The notes under the pieces were generated by a model that did not search any database, was not told the origin of the DNA, and was given only the letters and a program-made list of their open reading frames with translations. Below, in pieces: positions 1 to 46,049 of a stretch of 48,594 bases of DNA; the stretch's first letter is position 1, and the number at the start of each line of letters is the position of its first letter. Origin of the DNA: Candidatus Dojkabacteria bacterium (lineage in GTDB: Bacteria > Patescibacteriota > Dojkabacteria > GCA-002793355); assembly GCA_030583825.1 (NCBI GenBank), contig CP129477.1, positions 909,627-958,220 of the forward strand, given 5' to 3'. The translations under genes and the position numbers were made by a program.

Positions 1-82
1 ATTTTTTCACTTAACGTTCATAAATTCTTCATCGTTTATCATTCAACGTGAAGTGATAAAGTTTTGGAGAGTACTGTAATTT

Positions 83-198
83 AGGGACGAGAAGCTGAGT
101 GAAAAACAGTAGCTGCTCCTACTGTTTTGAACGAAGAAGGGGTCGAGGAGCATACCTTAGGCTTTGAATATAATGCGAGGTGACCGAGTCCCTCCTCC
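83..198 (+). repeat. tRNA-linked mini-element, copy A (ends in a tRNA T-arm/3'-end-like sequence CGAGTCCCTCC)
   Basis: Shares GAAGCTGAGTGAA with the Thr-linked copy, and GGGGTCGAGGAG plus ATAATGCGAGGTGACCGA (18/18) with the Arg-linked copy. It has a 10-bp hairpin at 103-128, and AGGGAC (83-88) pairs with GTCCCT (188-193). Confidence 0.85.
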
Positions 199-219
199 AT
201 GTTTAGCAGAATAATATCT

Positions 220-1747: not shown

Positions 1748-2528
1748 TATTATTTGTTACTCTATTTATTGATATATCTAAGTAAGAAGATTCATTGTCA
1801 ATTCCAATAAATTTTCTATTAAGCTCTATTGCAACTATACCAGTTGTTCCGCTTCCTGAAAATGGATCTAAGATAGTATCTCCTTCTTTTGTACTGGAAA
1901 GTATGATTCTTTTTAAGAGCATTTCAGGCTTTTGTGTTGGGTGTTTTCCAAAACGTTTTTCATAGGGTTTCACACTATTTACTGCCCAGACAGATCGCAT
2001 CTGTTTACCAGGTACTTTTAAGAAATCTCCATCGCTATCATAATTCTTCATCTCGATATAGTTAAAAGTATGTTTTCCTGCTTTGTGCTTTCTTACCCAC
2101 AAAAGATTCTCGTGGCTTGCAGTAAAAAATCGTCCGCTTAAATTAGGAGGCGCGTTCTTTTTATACCATACAATATCGTTTAAAATATGATAACCTAGTT
2201 TTTGGATGGCGAATCCTATTTGGTAGGTAGAATGGTATGTGCTACTTACCCATAATGTTCCATTTGGTTTCAATAGTCGCTTTGCCAATTTTAGCCATTC
2301 ATAGTGAAACTCAAAGTTTTCTTTTAACGATGATCCTATATCCCAATCCCCCTTCTTGACGCTTACCATTTCTCCATTTTGGCAAGTAAAACTTCCATTA
2401 GATAAGAAATATGGAGGATCAGCAAATATCATATCAATGCTCTCTTCGGGTATCTCTTTTAGCAACTTAAATGAGTCGGCATGATAAAGAGTAAAATCTT
2501 TTAATTCTGATTGGAAATAAGGTTTCAT
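1731..2528 (-). CDS. Beta-class DNA methyltransferase, DpnA/M.MboIB-like
   Basis: N-terminal ADPPYFLSNG....G..VSV.KGDWD, then HPTQKP and a C-terminal DPFSGSGTT motif I (beta-class order). Confidence 0.9.
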   Translation of the reverse strand: MKPYFQSELKDFTLYHADSFKLLKEIPEESIDMIFADPPYFLSNGSFTCQNGEMVSVKKGDWDIGSSLKENFEFHYEWLKLAKRLLKPNGTLWVSSTYHSTYQIGFAIQKLGYHILNDIVWYKKNAPPNLSGRFFTASHENLLWVRKHKAGKHTFNYIEMKNYDSDGDFLKVPGKQMRSVWAVNSVKPYEKRFGKHPTQKPEMLLKRIILSSTKEGDTILDPFSGSGTTGIVAIELNRKFIGIDNESSYLDISINRVTNNNGNYY

Positions 2529-2592
2529 ATAATATATTGTACTTGATAAAAATGATTGTACAACTTTAAAACCAAATAGTTTTTTCTTCCTA

Positions 2593-2601
2593 TGCTACAA
2601 T
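2593..2601 (+). promoter_or_regulatory. Extended -10 box TGcTACAAT, 5 nt before ATG 2607 (putative leaderless start)
   Basis: Read directly from the sequence; no Shine-Dalgarno sequence between the box and the ATG. Confidence 0.6.
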
Positions 2602-2606
2602 GTTCT

Positions 2607-3089
2607 ATGACAAATCTTGGACTTACAATCGAACTCTGGTTCGACAATGAAGCAGAAGAAGCTGCTCGATTTTACACAGGTGTTTTCAAAGACTCCGAAC
2701 TTGGGGCGATCCGCTATTACACCACCGATACTCCCTCAAACAAGCCTATTGGCAGCGTTATCACCGTAGACTTTACTCTCAATGGCCAAAGGTTCCAGGC
2801 ACTAAACGGCGGCCCAGACTTTAAATTCAATGAATCAATTTCTTTTATCGTCGAATGTGAGGATCAAGCCGAAATTGACTACTACTGGTCAAAACTCACT
2901 GCCGATGGAGGAGAAGAAAGCTTCTGTGGCTGGCTCAAGGACAAATACGGTGTCAGCTGGCAAATTGTTCCAAAAGGTTTAGATGACCTCCTCTACCAGG
3001 AAGATGCAGCAAAAGGAAAACGCGCAATGGATGTTCTTCTTACGATGAAAAAACTCGATTTTGAAGCAATTAAAGTTGCTGCAGCATAA
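2607..3089 (+). CDS. VOC/PhnB-family protein (3-demethylubiquinone-9 3-methyltransferase-like)
   Basis: LWFDNEAEEAA.FY, F.LNGQ.F.ALNGGP.FKFNE.ISF and CGWLKDKYGVSWQIVP are typical of the family. The start at 2607 is supported by the adjacent -10 box. Confidence 0.88.
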   Translation: MTNLGLTIELWFDNEAEEAARFYTGVFKDSELGAIRYYTTDTPSNKPIGSVITVDFTLNGQRFQALNGGPDFKFNESISFIVECEDQAEIDYYWSKLTADGGEESFCGWLKDKYGVSWQIVPKGLDDLLYQEDAAKGKRAMDVLLTMKKLDFEAIKVAAA

Positions 3090-3138
3090 ATTTTGTCACT
3101 AACAAAAAATAGCTAATTTGTGAAACATTGCAAATTCT

Positions 3139-3555
3139 GTGAAACTTCCCTCTCCCGACGTAAAAACGATCTCTCAATATAACGCTGCTCAGCCTGACAG
3201 CTACAAGCAAATTTGCGAGCTACTCAACAAAGAAATTAATCGTCACTTACCAAAAGCAGAAAGCAAATTGTGGCATGGAGCTCCAGTTTGGTTTCTTGAG
3301 GGCAATCCTATCGTAGGCTATCACTTACTGAAAGATGGAGTTCGATTACTTTTCTGGAGCGGTCTCTCTTTTGAAGAGCCTTCCCTTATAAAGGTCGGAA
3401 AAAACTTCCAATCCGCAGGAATTACTTACACAGATGTTGGACAGATAAATCTAGGTGACCTTGAAAGATACCTTAATAAGGCAGAAAGTATACAGTGGGA
3501 TTATAAAAATCTTGTCAAAAGAAAAGGTGAGCTTTTACCGGTAGAAAAAATTTAA
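3139..3555 (+). CDS. DUF1801 (YdhG-like) domain protein
   Basis: LP.AESKLWHGAPVWFL.GNPIVGY...K.GVRLLFWSG.SF.EP pattern. Confidence 0.75.
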   Translation: MKLPSPDVKTISQYNAAQPDSYKQICELLNKEINRHLPKAESKLWHGAPVWFLEGNPIVGYHLLKDGVRLLFWSGLSFEEPSLIKVGKNFQSAGITYTDVGQINLGDLERYLNKAESIQWDYKNLVKRKGELLPVEKI

Positions 3556-3562
3556 TGAAAAA

Positions 3563-3610
3563 GCGGAACCGTAGCGACCAATAGCAACGATTTGCTATTG
3601 TGTTGCAAGG
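3563..3610. repeat. 48-bp dispersed hairpin repeat, copy 1
   Basis: 45/48 identical to 14946-14993; stem CAATAGCAA-cgat-TTGCTATTG. Confidence 0.9.
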
Positions 3611-3640
3611 CTAATAATTAATTATTACTTATTTTAGGCG

Positions 3641-4054
3641 ATGAAAGTTTCAGCAATTTATGTAAATCTTCCAATTAAAGACGTTAACCGTTCACGAGCA
3701 TTCTGGACAAAGCTTGGATTTTCGATCAATGAAGAATTCAGTGATGAAAAAGCAATCTGCCTTGTGCTTAACGAAGAGAAAGGTCTCTTTGCAATGCTGG
3801 TGACTCACGAATTCTTTAAAACATTTACCAACCGACCAATTTCTGACGGTATAACAACACAAGTAATTAATGCAATTCAAGTCGAAAATCGTGAAACAGT
3901 AGATAAAATTGTGAAACATGCCTTAGAAGCAGGTGCTACTCGCTATCGCGAAGGAAAAGACGAAGGCTGGATGTATTACGACAGTTTTGCAGATTTGGAC
4001 GGTCACCAATGGGAAGTTATGGCAATGGATGTGACTAAAATCTCTCCCGAATAA
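3641..4054 (+). CDS. VOC family (glyoxalase/bleomycin resistance-like) protein
   Basis: IYVNLPIKDVNRSRAFWTKLGF at the N-terminus and GWMY..SFADLDGHQWEV at the C-terminus. Confidence 0.85.
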   Translation: MKVSAIYVNLPIKDVNRSRAFWTKLGFSINEEFSDEKAICLVLNEEKGLFAMLVTHEFFKTFTNRPISDGITTQVINAIQVENRETVDKIVKHALEAGATRYREGKDEGWMYYDSFADLDGHQWEVMAMDVTKISPE

Positions 4055-4606
4055 ATGAAAAGTATTCGGTATATTGCGTTACTCCGTGGAATTAACGTTG
4101 GTGGCAACAATATTATCAAAATGGCCGATTTGAAAGCCTGTTTTGAGTCAATGAAATTTGCAAATGTAGTCACATATATTCAAAGTGGCAATGTATTGTT
4201 CGATTCTCTCGAAGAAGATAAAGAAACGCTTGTGGGGTTAATAGAAAAAACGCTTTCGACTCAGTTTAATTATAGCTCAAAAATTGTACTTATTACTGCT
4301 GATCACCTTAGAGAAACTGTAAGTGATGCTCCCAGTGGCTTTGGTCAAAATTTCGAGGAGTATAAATACGATGTATTATTTCTAAAAGAACCTCTTGTTG
4401 CGAAAGAGGCTCTCGGAAGCCTCAAGTTAAGAGATGGCGTAGACAATGCATATGCCGGCAATGGTGTTTTGTATTTTTCGCGTCGGATAAAAGACCTTAC
4501 AAAAAGTTATCTCAGTAAAGTGATATTGCTTCCAATTTACAAAAACATGACAATCCGCAACTGGAACACGACCACAAAGCTATTAAGCTTAGCAAACCCG
4601 CAGTAA
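4055..4606 (+). CDS. DUF1697 domain protein
   Basis: YIALLRGINVGG.N.IKMADL..., V.TYIQSGNV.F and a C-terminal TIRNWNT, all characteristic of the family. Confidence 0.88.
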   Translation: MKSIRYIALLRGINVGGNNIIKMADLKACFESMKFANVVTYIQSGNVLFDSLEEDKETLVGLIEKTLSTQFNYSSKIVLITADHLRETVSDAPSGFGQNFEEYKYDVLFLKEPLVAKEALGSLKLRDGVDNAYAGNGVLYFSRRIKDLTKSYLSKVILLPIYKNMTIRNWNTTTKLLSLANPQ

Positions 4607-27290: not shown

Positions 27291-27668
27291 CTAGAGATTA
27301 CAGAACAGATCGATTTTATAGCCATCCGGGTCTTCGACAATACAGTATCTTTGTCCCCAAAATGCATCCCACGGCTCTTTCGCTATCTTGAATCCTGCTT
27401 GTGCGATTGCTTCTGCTGCTTTATTCACTTCTTCTGGAGAATCATACTTAATTGCAAATGAAGAGTGATTGCTCGCTCTTGGTTCTTCTCCCAATATCTC
27501 GGTGATAAGTTTCTTTGAGTCAATCATCAATCGTGCACCATTTTTATGTTGTGGTTCGAGATGTTGTTCATCTTCAGCAAATGATTCGAATGTAAAGCCA
27601 AGAAGTGTGTAAAATCGTACGGTTTCTTTGAGATTGGAGCTTGCAACTCCGACTGCGTCAATTGTCAT
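27291..27668 (-). CDS. VOC family protein
   Basis: FYTLLGF at the N-terminus and EPWDAFWGQRY..VEDPDG at the C-terminus. Confidence 0.88.
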   Translation of the reverse strand: MTIDAVGVASSNLKETVRFYTLLGFTFESFAEDEQHLEPQHKNGARLMIDSKKLITEILGEEPRASNHSSFAIKYDSPEEVNKAAEAIAQAGFKIAKEPWDAFWGQRYCIVEDPDGYKIDLFCNL

Positions 27669-27705
27669 GATCTTGTTGATGAAATTTAGGGTTTATGCGT
27701 TTTAT

Positions 27706-27837
27706 GTGGAAGACGGGATGGCGCGACGCTACTTTCGCTGTACTCAAGAGCGAACCTTCATTACTTTAATATATGAGGTTACTCACCGAGGATTCTCACT
27801 CTTGTGTCTATCTACCTTACAGGCAGCTACACACAAA
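27706..27837 (-). repeat. tRNA-Gly(GCC)-linked spacer closed by a duplicate of the tRNA 3' end
   Basis: 27706-27719 matches 27839-27852 at 13/14 positions. The spacer begins with a hairpin sharing TGCCTGT(T)AAGGTA with the one after tRNA-Gly(TCC). Confidence 0.7.
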
Positions 27838-33841: not shown

Positions 33842-33918
33842 TGGAGCTGAGAACGGGAGTCGAACCCGTGACCTCCCCCTTACCAAGGGGGTGCTCTAGC
33901 CACCTGAGCTATCCCAGC
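33842..33918 (-). tRNA. tRNA-Thr(GGT)
   Basis: CCCCC-TTGGTAA-GGGGG anticodon arm; 3' CCA encoded. Confidence 0.95.
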
Positions 33919-33995
33919 ATAAAGTTGTGAGTACTAAAGAATTAAAGCTCAGGGAGGTATGCCAATTATAACTGAGCGGGAATACTACTTTTTTA

Positions 33996-34124
33996 GGTCA
34001 GGGCGGGGTTCGCTCACCTTGTAACAAACCATAATTCGCTCCGCGTCTATAGGTGTTACTACCTCGAGCCCATCTTCGTTCTAAATAGCAAATTGTTGCT
34101 ATTTTTCACTCAGCTTCGAATCCC
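33996..34124 (-). repeat. tRNA-linked mini-element, copy C (tRNA-Thr TGT)
   Basis: GGGATTCGAAGCTGAGTGAA, AAATAGCAA-caat-TTGCTATTT, GAACGAAGA, CTCGAGG and AAGGTGAG|CGAACCCCGCC, the last being a degenerate copy of the Thr CGAATCCCGCC. Confidence 0.8.
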
Positions 34125-34137
34125 TACTTCCCTAAAA

Positions 34138-34176
34138 TTGTTAAAAAATCCTAAACTCCTTAGGATTTTTTAACAA
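34138..34176. terminator. Perfect 17-bp inverted repeat abutting the tRNA-Thr(TGT) 3' end
   Basis: TTGTTAAAAAATCCTAA-actcc-TTAGGATTTTTTAACAA. A terminator or processing role is inferred. Confidence 0.5.
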
Positions 34177-34247
34177 GCCAGAGGCGGGATTCGAACCCGC
34201 GACAAACGGTTTACAAAACCGCTACTCTACCACTGAGTTACTCCGGC
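34176..34247 (-). tRNA. tRNA-Thr(TGT)
   Basis: GCGGT-TTTGTAA-ACCGT anticodon arm; T-arm GCGGG-TTCGAAT-CCCGC. Confidence 0.95.
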
Positions 34248-34272: not shown

Positions 34273-34911
34273 TTATATTCCAAATACTTGTAAGAGCGTA
34301 AAAACAATTGTTTCGATGAAATTATACCAAAAGTTACTAAAAATTGCGAAAAATGGTGACACCGGCAGAACAAAGATAAGCATAATCCATGGAAGGAATG
34401 ACCCAATAGATTGCCATGTTTCTCTAAAACGATCGGGCAAAAGGGCATCTACGATATTTCCACCATCCAGAGGAGGAATAGGAAGCAAGTTAAAAAATGC
34501 CAACGTAGCGTTAATAAACAGGAAGAATACAAAGAATTGAATGATTAAAGTACTTATAAATGTAGTATCAGGGATAATAATTGTGACAATTTTCAAGAGC
34601 GCCGCACCAATAACCATAAGGATGAGATTCGAAACTGGCCCAGCCACTGCAACAAGAAACTGTCCTCGTAATGGATTTTCAAAGTTGTAAATATTTACGG
34701 GGACTGGTTTTGCCCATCCAATACGTGCAAAAAGCATAAAAAGAAAGCCTATTGGATCTAAATGAGCTATTGGGTTGAGAGTCAAGCGTCCTTCTGCTTT
34801 TGCTGTATCGTCACCAAGCTTGTATGCGACCCATGCATGAGCATATTCGTGCACTGTTGCGGAAATAATCATTATTGGAATTGAGAATATGATCCAATAG
34901 ATTTGCTCCAT
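34273..34911 (-). CDS. Site-2 protease (M50) family protein
   Basis: HEYAH, TLNP.AH.D, GWAKPVP, VAGP.SN and NLLPIPPLDG. Confidence 0.93.
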   Translation of the reverse strand: MEQIYWIIFSIPIMIISATVHEYAHAWVAYKLGDDTAKAEGRLTLNPIAHLDPIGFLFMLFARIGWAKPVPVNIYNFENPLRGQFLVAVAGPVSNLILMVIGAALLKIVTIIIPDTTFISTLIIQFFVFFLFINATLAFFNLLPIPPLDGGNIVDALLPDRFRETWQSIGSFLPWIMLIFVLPVSPFFAIFSNFWYNFIETIVFTLLQVFGI

Positions 34912-35823: not shown

Positions 35824-35945
35824 AGAATGCACCCGGAGGGAATCGGTCACCTCGCATTATGCTGAATTACTAATGAATACTCCTCGACCCCGTCCTCACT
35901 TAGAAAAGCAGGAGCAACTGCTTTTCTTCACTCGGTTTCGATTCC
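35824..35945 (-). repeat. tRNA-linked mini-element, copy D (tRNA-Arg), ending in a 22-bp exact duplicate of the tRNA 3' end
   Basis: 35824-35845 equals 36121-36142. All family motifs are present except that ACGAAG is degenerate. Confidence 0.88.
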
Positions 35946-35994
35946 TATCTTTCAGTTAAGAAGTAACACCACATTTCATATGCTGCTACCTCTT

Positions 35995-36120
35995 AATGCA
36001 CCCGGAGGGATACCCAGCTCCGCTTCTCTCGCAAAGCTCGAGTTAGAACCATTCACTTTGTGAAGGTCACTTTCCTTCCCCAGGTATTCTGCGCTATCAC
36101 CTAAAATTAGGTTACACCGC
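35995..36120 (-). repeat. Second tRNA-Arg-linked spacer closed by a 16-bp duplicate of the tRNA 3' end
   Basis: 35995-36010 (AATGCACCCGGAGGGA) equals 36123-36138. Confidence 0.8.
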
Positions 36121-45939: not shown

Positions 45940-46012
45940 TTGAGACGGTTATTTGCCTGTTAAGGTAAGTAGCCGCCTCAAGAAAATTACTGGGATTCGA
46001 AACCCGTAACCC
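45940..46012 (+). repeat. Hairpin followed by a near-complete duplicate of the tRNA-Gly(TCC) T-arm/3' end
   Basis: GGGATTCGAAACCCGTAACCC (45992-46012) versus the tRNA GGGTTCGAATCCCGTAACCC; long hairpin at 45940-45981. Confidence 0.75.
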
Positions 46013-46049
46013 ATCTCACTTGGTTATAAGAACGGTTTATATCCTGACC

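Follow-up and report, generated by a model that had tools for sequence, protein, structure and literature searches.

In tRNA att sites, as they are used by tyrosine-integrase islands and prophages, the T-loop is a classic sublocation for the integrase crossover. Downstream of an intact tRNA gene, the non-coding modules described here likewise carry a direct repeat of its 3' part, starting at the T-loop, and several of them can be stacked at one tRNA. Unlike att sites, however, they measure only 110-220 nt, are accompanied by no integrase and possess a conserved, covarying interior; moreover, their left end is an inverse copy of the tRNA end and their outer arm is often not tRNA sequence. With the attC sites of integrons the modules share a structure-defined imperfect palindrome, a short core outside which little sequence is conserved, a one-strand fold and the arrangement in arrays, as well as, in one case, a position at the 3' end of a bracketed ORF. 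They differ in that no IntI-like gene or attI platform was seen, in that most modules are gene-less, and in that they are tied to tRNA genes, which they imitate and with which they are transcribed. RNase P cleaves the YrlA of M. smegmatis, to which CCA is also added. Like YrlA and tmRNA, the modules join a tRNA-like acceptor/T-arm mimic to a non-tRNA module, but they show no significant match to the corresponding Rfam models, their mimic is matched to the neighbouring tRNA, an extra module occupies the T-loop position, and there are many copies per genome compared to 1-4. The sequence GUCGAGG in the module core resembles the GNCGAAN0-1G motif that YrlA carries (PMC4201824).

Short repeats of the REP/BIME, Correia, RPE and MITE kind are, like the modules, protein-less, palindromic, multi-copy, strain-variable and co-transcribed with their neighbours. 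In contrast to such repeats, the modules have neither fixed terminal inverted repeats nor a fixed target duplication, their arms are re-specified for each tRNA, and they occur almost exclusively in the 3' flanks of tRNA genes, in the orientation of the tRNA. When assessed as MITEs, they show arms that differ from tRNA to tRNA, no constant target-site duplication beyond CGA and no parent element in the loci. Finally, the TCGA of the left flank and the CCGA of the right end fit the insertion logic of IS200/IS605 PATE or of REP with RAYT; PATE, however, has subterminal hairpins at both ends, whereas the commonest short module subtype has one hairpin only.

The stretch of DNA that was analysed, here called the window, comprises 48,594 nt from a Candidatus Dojkabacteria bacterium, an assignment with which the homologues found for its proteins are consistent. 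Its copy B (33996-34176, minus strand) lies directly 3' of the gene for tRNA-Thr(UGU), at a site flanked by genes for an M50 protease and a metallophosphoesterase. The site is composed as follows:

34350..34321, minus strand: promoter-like TTCGCA-18-TGnTATAAT upstream of tRNA-Thr(UGU)
34176..34247, minus strand: tRNA-Thr(UGU) gene (tgt); ARAGORN, Rfam tRNA model 71 bits
34138..34176, minus strand: hairpin H1 with perfect 17-bp arms and a 5-nt loop; inverted-repeat search, MFE fold
34131..34137, minus strand: closing stem, 5' strand UUUUAGG, in perfect 7-bp pairing with 33991-33997; MFE and centroid folds
34115..34125, minus strand: left T-arm mimic AGGGAU-UCGAA; inverted-repeat search
34072..34114, minus strand: 5' module specific to the Dojkabacteria type, made up of GCUGAGUGAAAAA, hairpin Px and UUUAGAACGAAGAU
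34010..34071, minus strand: family core with GG, P1, purine-rich internal loop, long P2 hairpin and GA; cmsearch, fold
33998..34009, minus strand: right arm AC-CCCGC-CCUGA, a tRNA copy from nucleotide 59
33991..33997, minus strand: closing stem, 3' strand CCUAAAA; inverted-repeat search, fold

The tRNA-Thr(UGU) gene is without an encoded CCA, and copy B constitutes its 3' trailer. The trailer starts with H1, whose arms (34176-34160 and 34154-34138) are the perfect 17-bp inverted repeat that a preliminary description of this DNA had seen between the tRNA and the element, and whose first base is the last base of the tRNA. A scan for intrinsic terminators (G+C-rich stem followed by a U run) does not pick out H1, and an RNA contig (34088-34247) reads through it. 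The element 3' of H1, about 145 nt long, displays the order UUUUAGG, AGGGAUUCGAA, GCUGAGUGAAAAA, 9-bp hairpin, UUUAGAACGAAGAU, GGGCUCGAGGUAG, long hairpin, CAAGGUGAGCGA, ACCCCGCCCUGACCUAAAA. Accordingly, the motif order given in the preliminary description is found in full on the minus strand, with GGGATTCGAAGCTGAGTGAA from 34124, the hairpin at 34104-34083, GAACGAAGA, CTCGAGG and AAGGTGAG|CGA. The left end of copy B, GGGATTCGAA, is the exact inverse complement of TTCGAATCCC in tRNA-Thr(UGU). The 9-bp stem of Px pairs 34104-34096 with 34091-34083, and the core, beginning 105 nt after the tRNA, contains P1 formed by GCUCG (34069-34065) and UGAGC (34016-34012) as well as an internal loop AGGU/AAGG (consensus AGGA/GAGG). 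For the 150-nt element, the fold has a z-score of -3.4 relative to shuffled sequences.

At the right end the tRNA is repeated only in part (CGAACCCCGC vs CGAATCCCGC), the acceptor portion being diverged. Compared to AT-CCCGC-CTCTGG of the tRNA, the right arm shows one T-to-C change and divergence beyond; of the seven nucleotides after the terminal CGA, six match (ACCCCGC vs ATCCCGC). The T-to-C change results in an A.C mismatch with the left arm, which is still perfect. The earlier claim that the tRNA duplicate has drifted (CGAACCCCGCCCTGACC vs CGAATCCCGCCTCTGGCT) thus holds for the T-loop/T-stem part, where this change lies, but not for the outer part, which takes part in the perfect 7-bp closing stem. 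No ORF was found within the 180 nt between the tRNA-end repeats, nor any integrase gene or island remnant, and no integron R-box (GTTRRRY) was detected in the copy B sequence.

Copy B is one of four related copies in the window, located behind tRNA-Leu, tRNA-Val, tRNA-Thr and tRNA-Arg. The other three are:

60..205, plus strand: copy A, behind tRNA-Leu(CAG); cmsearch 52.1 bits at 139-187
15059..15274, minus strand: expanded copy V, behind tRNA-Val(CAC); weak cmsearch match, 14.8 bits
35828..35996, minus strand: copy C, the second module behind tRNA-Arg(GCG); cmsearch 50.5 bits

The tRNA-Leu(CAG) gene ends 9 nt before window position 1; its 3' part is present on a Logan contig (L051, 3602-3679) that extends 77 nt upstream of the window start, and since this contig places the tRNA just upstream, copy A is tRNA-linked as well. 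The T-loop/T-stem part CGAGTCCCTC of tRNA-Leu is repeated at the end of copy A (10/10). The 16-mer GAAGCTGAGTGAAAAA occurs exactly twice in the window, in copy A (91-106, plus strand) and in copy B (34117-34102, minus strand), which bears out the motif identity between the two copies noted before. Copy V ends with a perfect 16-nt copy and copy C with a perfect 17-nt copy of the respective tRNA 3' end; tRNA-Arg carries two stacked units, each of which closes with a perfect tRNA-end copy of 14-17 nt. Shorter modules follow both tRNA-Gly(GCC) and tRNA-Gly(UCC), so that tRNA-Thr(GGU) and tRNA-Trp are the only tRNAs of the window without a module. Behind tRNA-Gly(UCC) (45940-46015), GGGATTCGAAACCCGTAACCCAT lies after a hairpin; this sequence mimics a T-arm/acceptor in minimal form, contains no core within its loop and is possibly a cargo-less state of the module.

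To describe the family as a whole, a covariance model (R1) was built from 29 family cores. Besides copies A, B and C of the window, R1 recognises about 30 copies at other loci. It detects copy B over the full model length (34010-34071, minus strand) with 35.2 bits and an E-value of 1.2e-5, the lowest score among the three clear window copies, in line with its earlier description as a diverged copy of one element family. A scan of metagenomes with the pattern GGGGTCGAGGAG-N20-40-AGGTGACCGA yielded 41 loci, about 25 of which are A+T-rich, the rest being G+C-rich chance matches. The A+T-rich contigs look like those of bacteria of the candidate phyla radiation (CPR), and in many of them the match follows a tRNA (Lys, Arg, Gly, Trp, Ser, Val, Leu and others) at a distance of 70-110 nt. 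The core in these loci reads GG-[GGUCG/UGACC]-AGGA/GAGG loop-[variable hairpin]-GA.

Linkage to tRNA genes extends to the sequence of the arms. A same-strand tRNA lies at most 450 nt upstream in 20 of 32 model matches, and in 16 of these 20 at least six of the seven nucleotides after the terminal CGA equal those of the tRNA. In many of the A+T-rich loci, the tRNA is succeeded by a strong hairpin, by a sequence exactly complementary to its acceptor 3' strand and by a small hairpin, then by the T-stem/T-loop complement and the core; the unit closes with the repeated T-loop and T-stem 3' strand, in some cases with the entire repeated 3' end of the tRNA, as exemplified by L039 (GCGCGATGAGAGGC...GCCTCTCATCGCGC). 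In many copies only the T-loop/T-stem part of the arm tracks the tRNA. Every orthologous spacer between tRNA-Thr(UGU) and tRNA-Thr(GGU) that was retrieved via M50 protease homologues holds a version of the element, and each holds a different one. We operationally define a family member by the core, by a position within about 250 nt 3' of a same-strand tRNA gene and after a hairpin, and by a copy of T-loop 59-60 and T-stem together with the complement on the left; copy B has all of these. It is best described as an intact, expressed, divergent member of this family.

Orphan copies without a nearby tRNA were also found (L028, L029, L033 and L050). L050 (JACCDG010263963.1, 3700-4700) contains two complete modules, both arms of which match the 3' end of the tRNA-Ser(ACU) of L047; within the 6.7 kb of the L050 locus ARAGORN predicts no tRNA, and only degenerate tRNA-end-like strings lie upstream. 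In L033 (2760-2795), a solo remnant, AGGTGACCAAATCCCGCCGG, located 12 nt after tRNA-Arg(GCG), comprises only the right end of the core and the arm, as if the rest of the module had been deleted.

In Rfam 15, only tRNAs pass the gathering thresholds and no family does so on the element; at E-values up to 10, nothing credible falls on the element. The YrlA model reaches 15.9 bits (threshold 69) over the tRNA T-arm and H1. A strict three-motif scan of GTDB representative genomes returned one match, a chance match with no tRNA nearby; it lies in a Bacteroidales MAG (CACZVR010000045.1, locus L001, 4955-5140), in a tandem repeat of about 70 nt (GCAAGGTGAGCGAAAAAGCAAATTTTTTTGCTTTTTCCGAACCGCAGCC...) that belongs to a different repeat family. 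No description of a tRNA-trailing module family was found in the literature searched, and the family is apparently undescribed.

A number of known RNA and DNA elements were considered as candidates and rejected. The core motifs of hammerhead, hairpin and twister ribozymes do not fit, and Rfam gives no match to them. In IS110 bridge RNA open guide loops would be expected, whereas the two arms of the module pair with each other. Adjoining the copies examined there is neither a reverse-transcriptase gene, as for a retron ncRNA, nor a tnpB gene, as for a TnpB omega-RNA with a tRNA-end guide, which moreover would target the tRNA itself. An origin from mature tRNA, similar to a primer-binding site, was discarded as most copies, copy B included, are without CCA.

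All 37 distinct cores fold alike, into GG, a 5-bp P1 (GGUCG/UGACC), a 4x4 purine loop (AGGA/GAGG), a variable P2 and GA. In the alignment of 29 cores 96.9% of the cells are paired, compared to 18-58% when the partners are slid. The outer pairs of P2, which show four to five pair types each, contain 44 double-changed cells, while shuffled alignments contain 15.3 ± 2.7 and none of 500 shuffles reaches the observed number. In P1, the G.U at columns 7-57 is kept in 29/29 cores, and the pair at columns 4-60 is C-G in copy B and G-C in the other 28, which makes copy B the only core with a compensatory G-C to C-G flip in P1. Since P1 is nearly invariant, its covariation support consists of this one double change and of one-sided changes in divergent subtypes. 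A consensus fold of 10 aligned Dojkabacteria-type copies yields a T-stem-like helix, Px, P1 and P2, with 11 of 21 pairs holding through double changes. Here, the T-stem-like closing helix GGGAN/NUCCC (columns 4-8 with 124-128) has an innermost pair that covaries, changing along with the tRNA, and the side hairpin Px likewise shows covariation. Folded alone, copy B adopts the consensus shape, closed by the perfect 7-bp stem between 33991-33997 and 34131-34137. The fold is also biased with regard to the strand: the summed minimum free energy of the 37 cores amounts to -735 kcal/mol in tRNA sense and to -565 kcal/mol in antisense, and 59 of the 622 pairs in the core folds are G.U. Taken together, the covariation of the stems, the invariant G.U and the P1 flip of copy B argue for selection on the fold of the tRNA-sense strand. 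Each strand of the conserved internal loop resembles a Shine-Dalgarno sequence (GAGGAG and GAGGUGA, e.g. at 139-187 of the window), and GAGGUGA is complementary to the usual 3' tail of 16S rRNA.

In the wider alignment (10 Dojkabacteria-type copies, 29 cores) divergence is blocky instead of uniform across the element. The blocks GGGA, GAA, GGGGTCGAGGAG and CGAGGTGACCGA..CCC are far better conserved than the rest, as had been proposed for the internal motifs in the preliminary description; variation is found in the stems and spacers, with covariation in the stems. Selection on the motifs is thus supported, because conservation is blocky and the variable parts covary. The two departures of copy B in P1, GGGC for GGGG and GAGC for GACC, amount to one compensatory base-pair flip.

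RNA evidence comes from three metatranscriptome runs of one sludge study, in the form of unstranded Logan contigs with a depth of 2-4. Two RNA contigs without mismatch (33965-34115 and 34088-34247) cover the whole of copy B and tRNA-Thr(UGU), while the flanking genes for the M50 protease, EamA and the phosphoesterase have an RNA depth of 0. The second of these contigs ends at the first base of tRNA-Thr(UGU). Since a contig from a DNA run crosses 34247 unbroken, this stop is suggestive of a processed 5' end, at a depth of only 2-3. Further RNA contigs lie on copy V (15058-15245), across the junction of the two tRNA-Arg units (35925-36075) and on the tRNA-Gly(GCC) unit (27605-27755). In total, about 5 of roughly 30 perfect RNA pieces fall on modules, which occupy about 2.4% of the window. 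Being unstranded and from one study, the contigs show transcription only and no discrete RNA product; contig ends can be made by the assembly, and read-through of a tRNA operon would give equal coverage without any function. In RNA run X18, a contig is perfect over the Val element for 188 nt, stops at the 3' end of the element and at 15245 enters 20 nt unlike the window (RNA sense ...CTGTTATATATTTCATTGGC|GAGAAACC), which points to a second copy or strain allele of the Val element with shared cargo and right arm and a different left arm.

The comparison of two closely related strain loci, L004 and L005, reveals how these sites change. The M50 protein that they encode is the same, the flanks agree to 98-99% and the two tRNA-Thr genes to 100%, whereas the 250-nt spacer between the tRNA genes is only 41% identical. 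The two spacers are two different family members, with different first hairpins and tails. Copies at the Thr-Thr locus are replaced wholesale, which points to turnover and not to slow decay. The preliminary description had regarded copy B as an older copy; with wholesale replacement at this locus such an age cannot be inferred, and copy B may instead stem from a different lineage. It is not decaying, because its P1 flip is compensatory, its closing stem is perfect and the copy is transcribed. Likewise, to view the repeated tRNA end as a plain target duplication proves too simple, given that the outer arm of L005 (ATGTAAAATG/CATTTTACAT) is unrelated to the tRNA yet complementary to the left arm. 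Within the species itself no strain polymorphism was seen: Logan contigs L002 and L003, like several DNA runs, agree with the window in every position and show neither joints nor an alternative allele. A 31-kb contig from DNA run X14, which belongs to a related organism, carries both tRNA-Thr genes with 3 differences in 50 nt and 6 in 76 nt; the two genes are 541 nt apart, compared to 256 nt in the window (33918-34175), and the larger site may hold two modules.

Tandem units are found at tRNA-Arg of the window and in L018, L020, L021 and L030, and the comparison of L018 with L014 shows the extra unit placed at the CGA junction. A cassette-like layout is seen in L015 (Ga0172380_10011784, 1883-4315), where the 31-nt sequence CGAATCCTCCCCTACGCAATTTATGGATTGC follows the first module behind tRNA-Tyr and recurs about 2.06 kb later, right after a second core, with one 509-aa ORF (2593-4122) between the two. 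This ORF (P0121) has no Pfam, PHROG or NCBIfam match and no homologue in the other loci; it was therefore rejected as a mobilising enzyme and treated as cargo.

To account for these observations, we favour a structured, tRNA-mimicking RNA that resides in the 3' trailer of the tRNA and is exchanged, as DNA, in the form of a cassette at tRNA flanks (probability about 0.45). The module would be transcribed as the 3' trailer of tRNA-Thr(UGU), and the trailer RNA is predicted to fold into a branched rod composed of H1, the closing stem, a helix imitating T-stem and T-loop, Px and a distal module. This nearly invariant distal module, i.e. P1 (GGUCG/UGACC) with its fixed G.U, the 4x4 loop AGGA/GAGG and the variable P2, would be what a protein or another RNA recognises, with the tRNA-like part serving as the handle that presents it. 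Such an RNA may act on tRNA-related machinery, be it in processing, in quality control or as a decoy. At the DNA level, copies would be gained, stacked and swapped as cassettes at tRNA 3' flanks. Of this picture, the data show that the copies form a family, that the fold covaries and is biased to one strand, that the modules are transcribed, that they are linked to tRNAs and match them in sequence, and that they are replaced between strains; a function as RNA, the partner and the way of spreading are inferred.

Somewhat unlikely, but to be weighed first among the alternatives, is a mobile DNA module that encodes no protein and, like attC or REP/PATE, works through its fold in single-stranded DNA. 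An enzyme provided in trans would recognise the strand that imitates the T-arm and insert the module at (T)TCGA of the T-loop or at the right junction of an earlier module, with transcription being incidental. The borders of the core, TCGA...CCGA, are in line with this reading, as ...GAC|CGA closes every copy, with T-loop 59-60 and the 3' strand of the T-stem coming next; the G.T pairs and the strand-specific fold would fit a single-stranded DNA recombination site, too. In addition, near-identical cores sit behind different tRNAs with arms re-specified to match each of them, a pattern more readily explained by copying or insertion than by selection alone. The tandem arrays with a new unit at the CGA junction (L018 vs L014), the apparently cargo-less minihelix after tRNA-Gly(UCC), the L015 ORF bracketed by a repeat of the tRNA-Tyr end with a core at the right end, the orphan copies and the replacement of whole spacers between strains point in the same direction. 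On the other hand, no recombinase or transposase was found adjacent to any copy, the L015 ORF being without a family match, and a pair of empty and filled sites with clean boundaries was not found: L004 and L005 differ over the whole spacer and not by a discrete insert. DNA runs of the strain contain no excision joints. Furthermore, in the commonest subtype (H1, inverted acceptor strand and a core of about 54 nt; L014, L021, L047) many copies are without the expected tRNA 3' end at the right, and an RNA accounts no less well for the invariant G.U, the purine loop and the transcription.

A bolder variant of our favoured reading, which we consider clearly unlikely, would make the module a functional RNA and a new mobile unit at once. 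In CPR bacteria, many tRNA genes would then be accompanied by a 'shadow' RNA, re-specified for each tRNA, that imitates the acceptor/T-arm minihelix of the tRNA and carries one universal recognition module (GGUCG/UGACC with the AGGA/GAGG loop). Towards enzymes that handle tRNAs, or toxins that target them, it would serve as a decoy, a sensor or a handle for processing, and it would spread by structure-directed recombination at TTCGA of the T-loop, as a counterpart of attC.

The two remaining readings fit the data less well. That the module is nothing but a cis-acting part of the tRNA precursor, i.e. a structured trailer that controls termination, 3'-end maturation or stability of tRNA-Thr and leads no independent life as RNA or mobile element, seems to us decidedly improbable. 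Such a role would agree with the invariable position directly 3' of a tRNA, on its strand and after a strong hairpin, with tRNA genes that encode no CCA, and with RNA contigs that join tRNA and module. Moreover, the sequence that follows H1 exactly complements the acceptor 3' strand in many relatives and can thus compete with the acceptor stem. However, tRNA-Thr(GGU) and tRNA-Trp of the window do without a module and tRNA-Arg of L004 has a hairpin only, modules occur in tandem and as orphans without a tRNA, and simple termination needs no conserved distal core common to the trailers of more than ten different tRNAs. Extremely improbable, finally, is a decayed att scar, left as attR and drifting debris by an island that had integrated at the T-loop of tRNA-Thr via a tyrosine integrase and was later deleted. 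In its favour, the tRNA is directly repeated from the T-loop onward. Against it, the interior is a conserved covarying structure common to many tRNAs and genomes, copy B keeps compensatory changes and a perfect closing stem, none of ten scanned tRNA-flanking ORFs of the window contains an integrase domain, and simple att recombination would not yield a left arm that copies the tRNA end inversely.

In conclusion, if the proposed trailer RNA and its exchange as a DNA cassette are real, the modules would represent a widespread, conserved and expressed class of non-coding elements in the candidate phyla radiation. As CPR genomes are very small, conserved non-coding stretches of about 150 nt downstream of many tRNA genes are unlikely to be neutral. 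The combination of a constant core with arms rewritten for each tRNA requires that some copying mechanism read the target tRNA gene or that mimicry of each tRNA be strongly selected for; to our knowledge, neither has been described for small elements of bacteria. The modules would also explain assembly breaks and hypervariable spacers in CPR genomes, as well as duplicated tRNA ends that are mis-called as att sites of prophages or islands.
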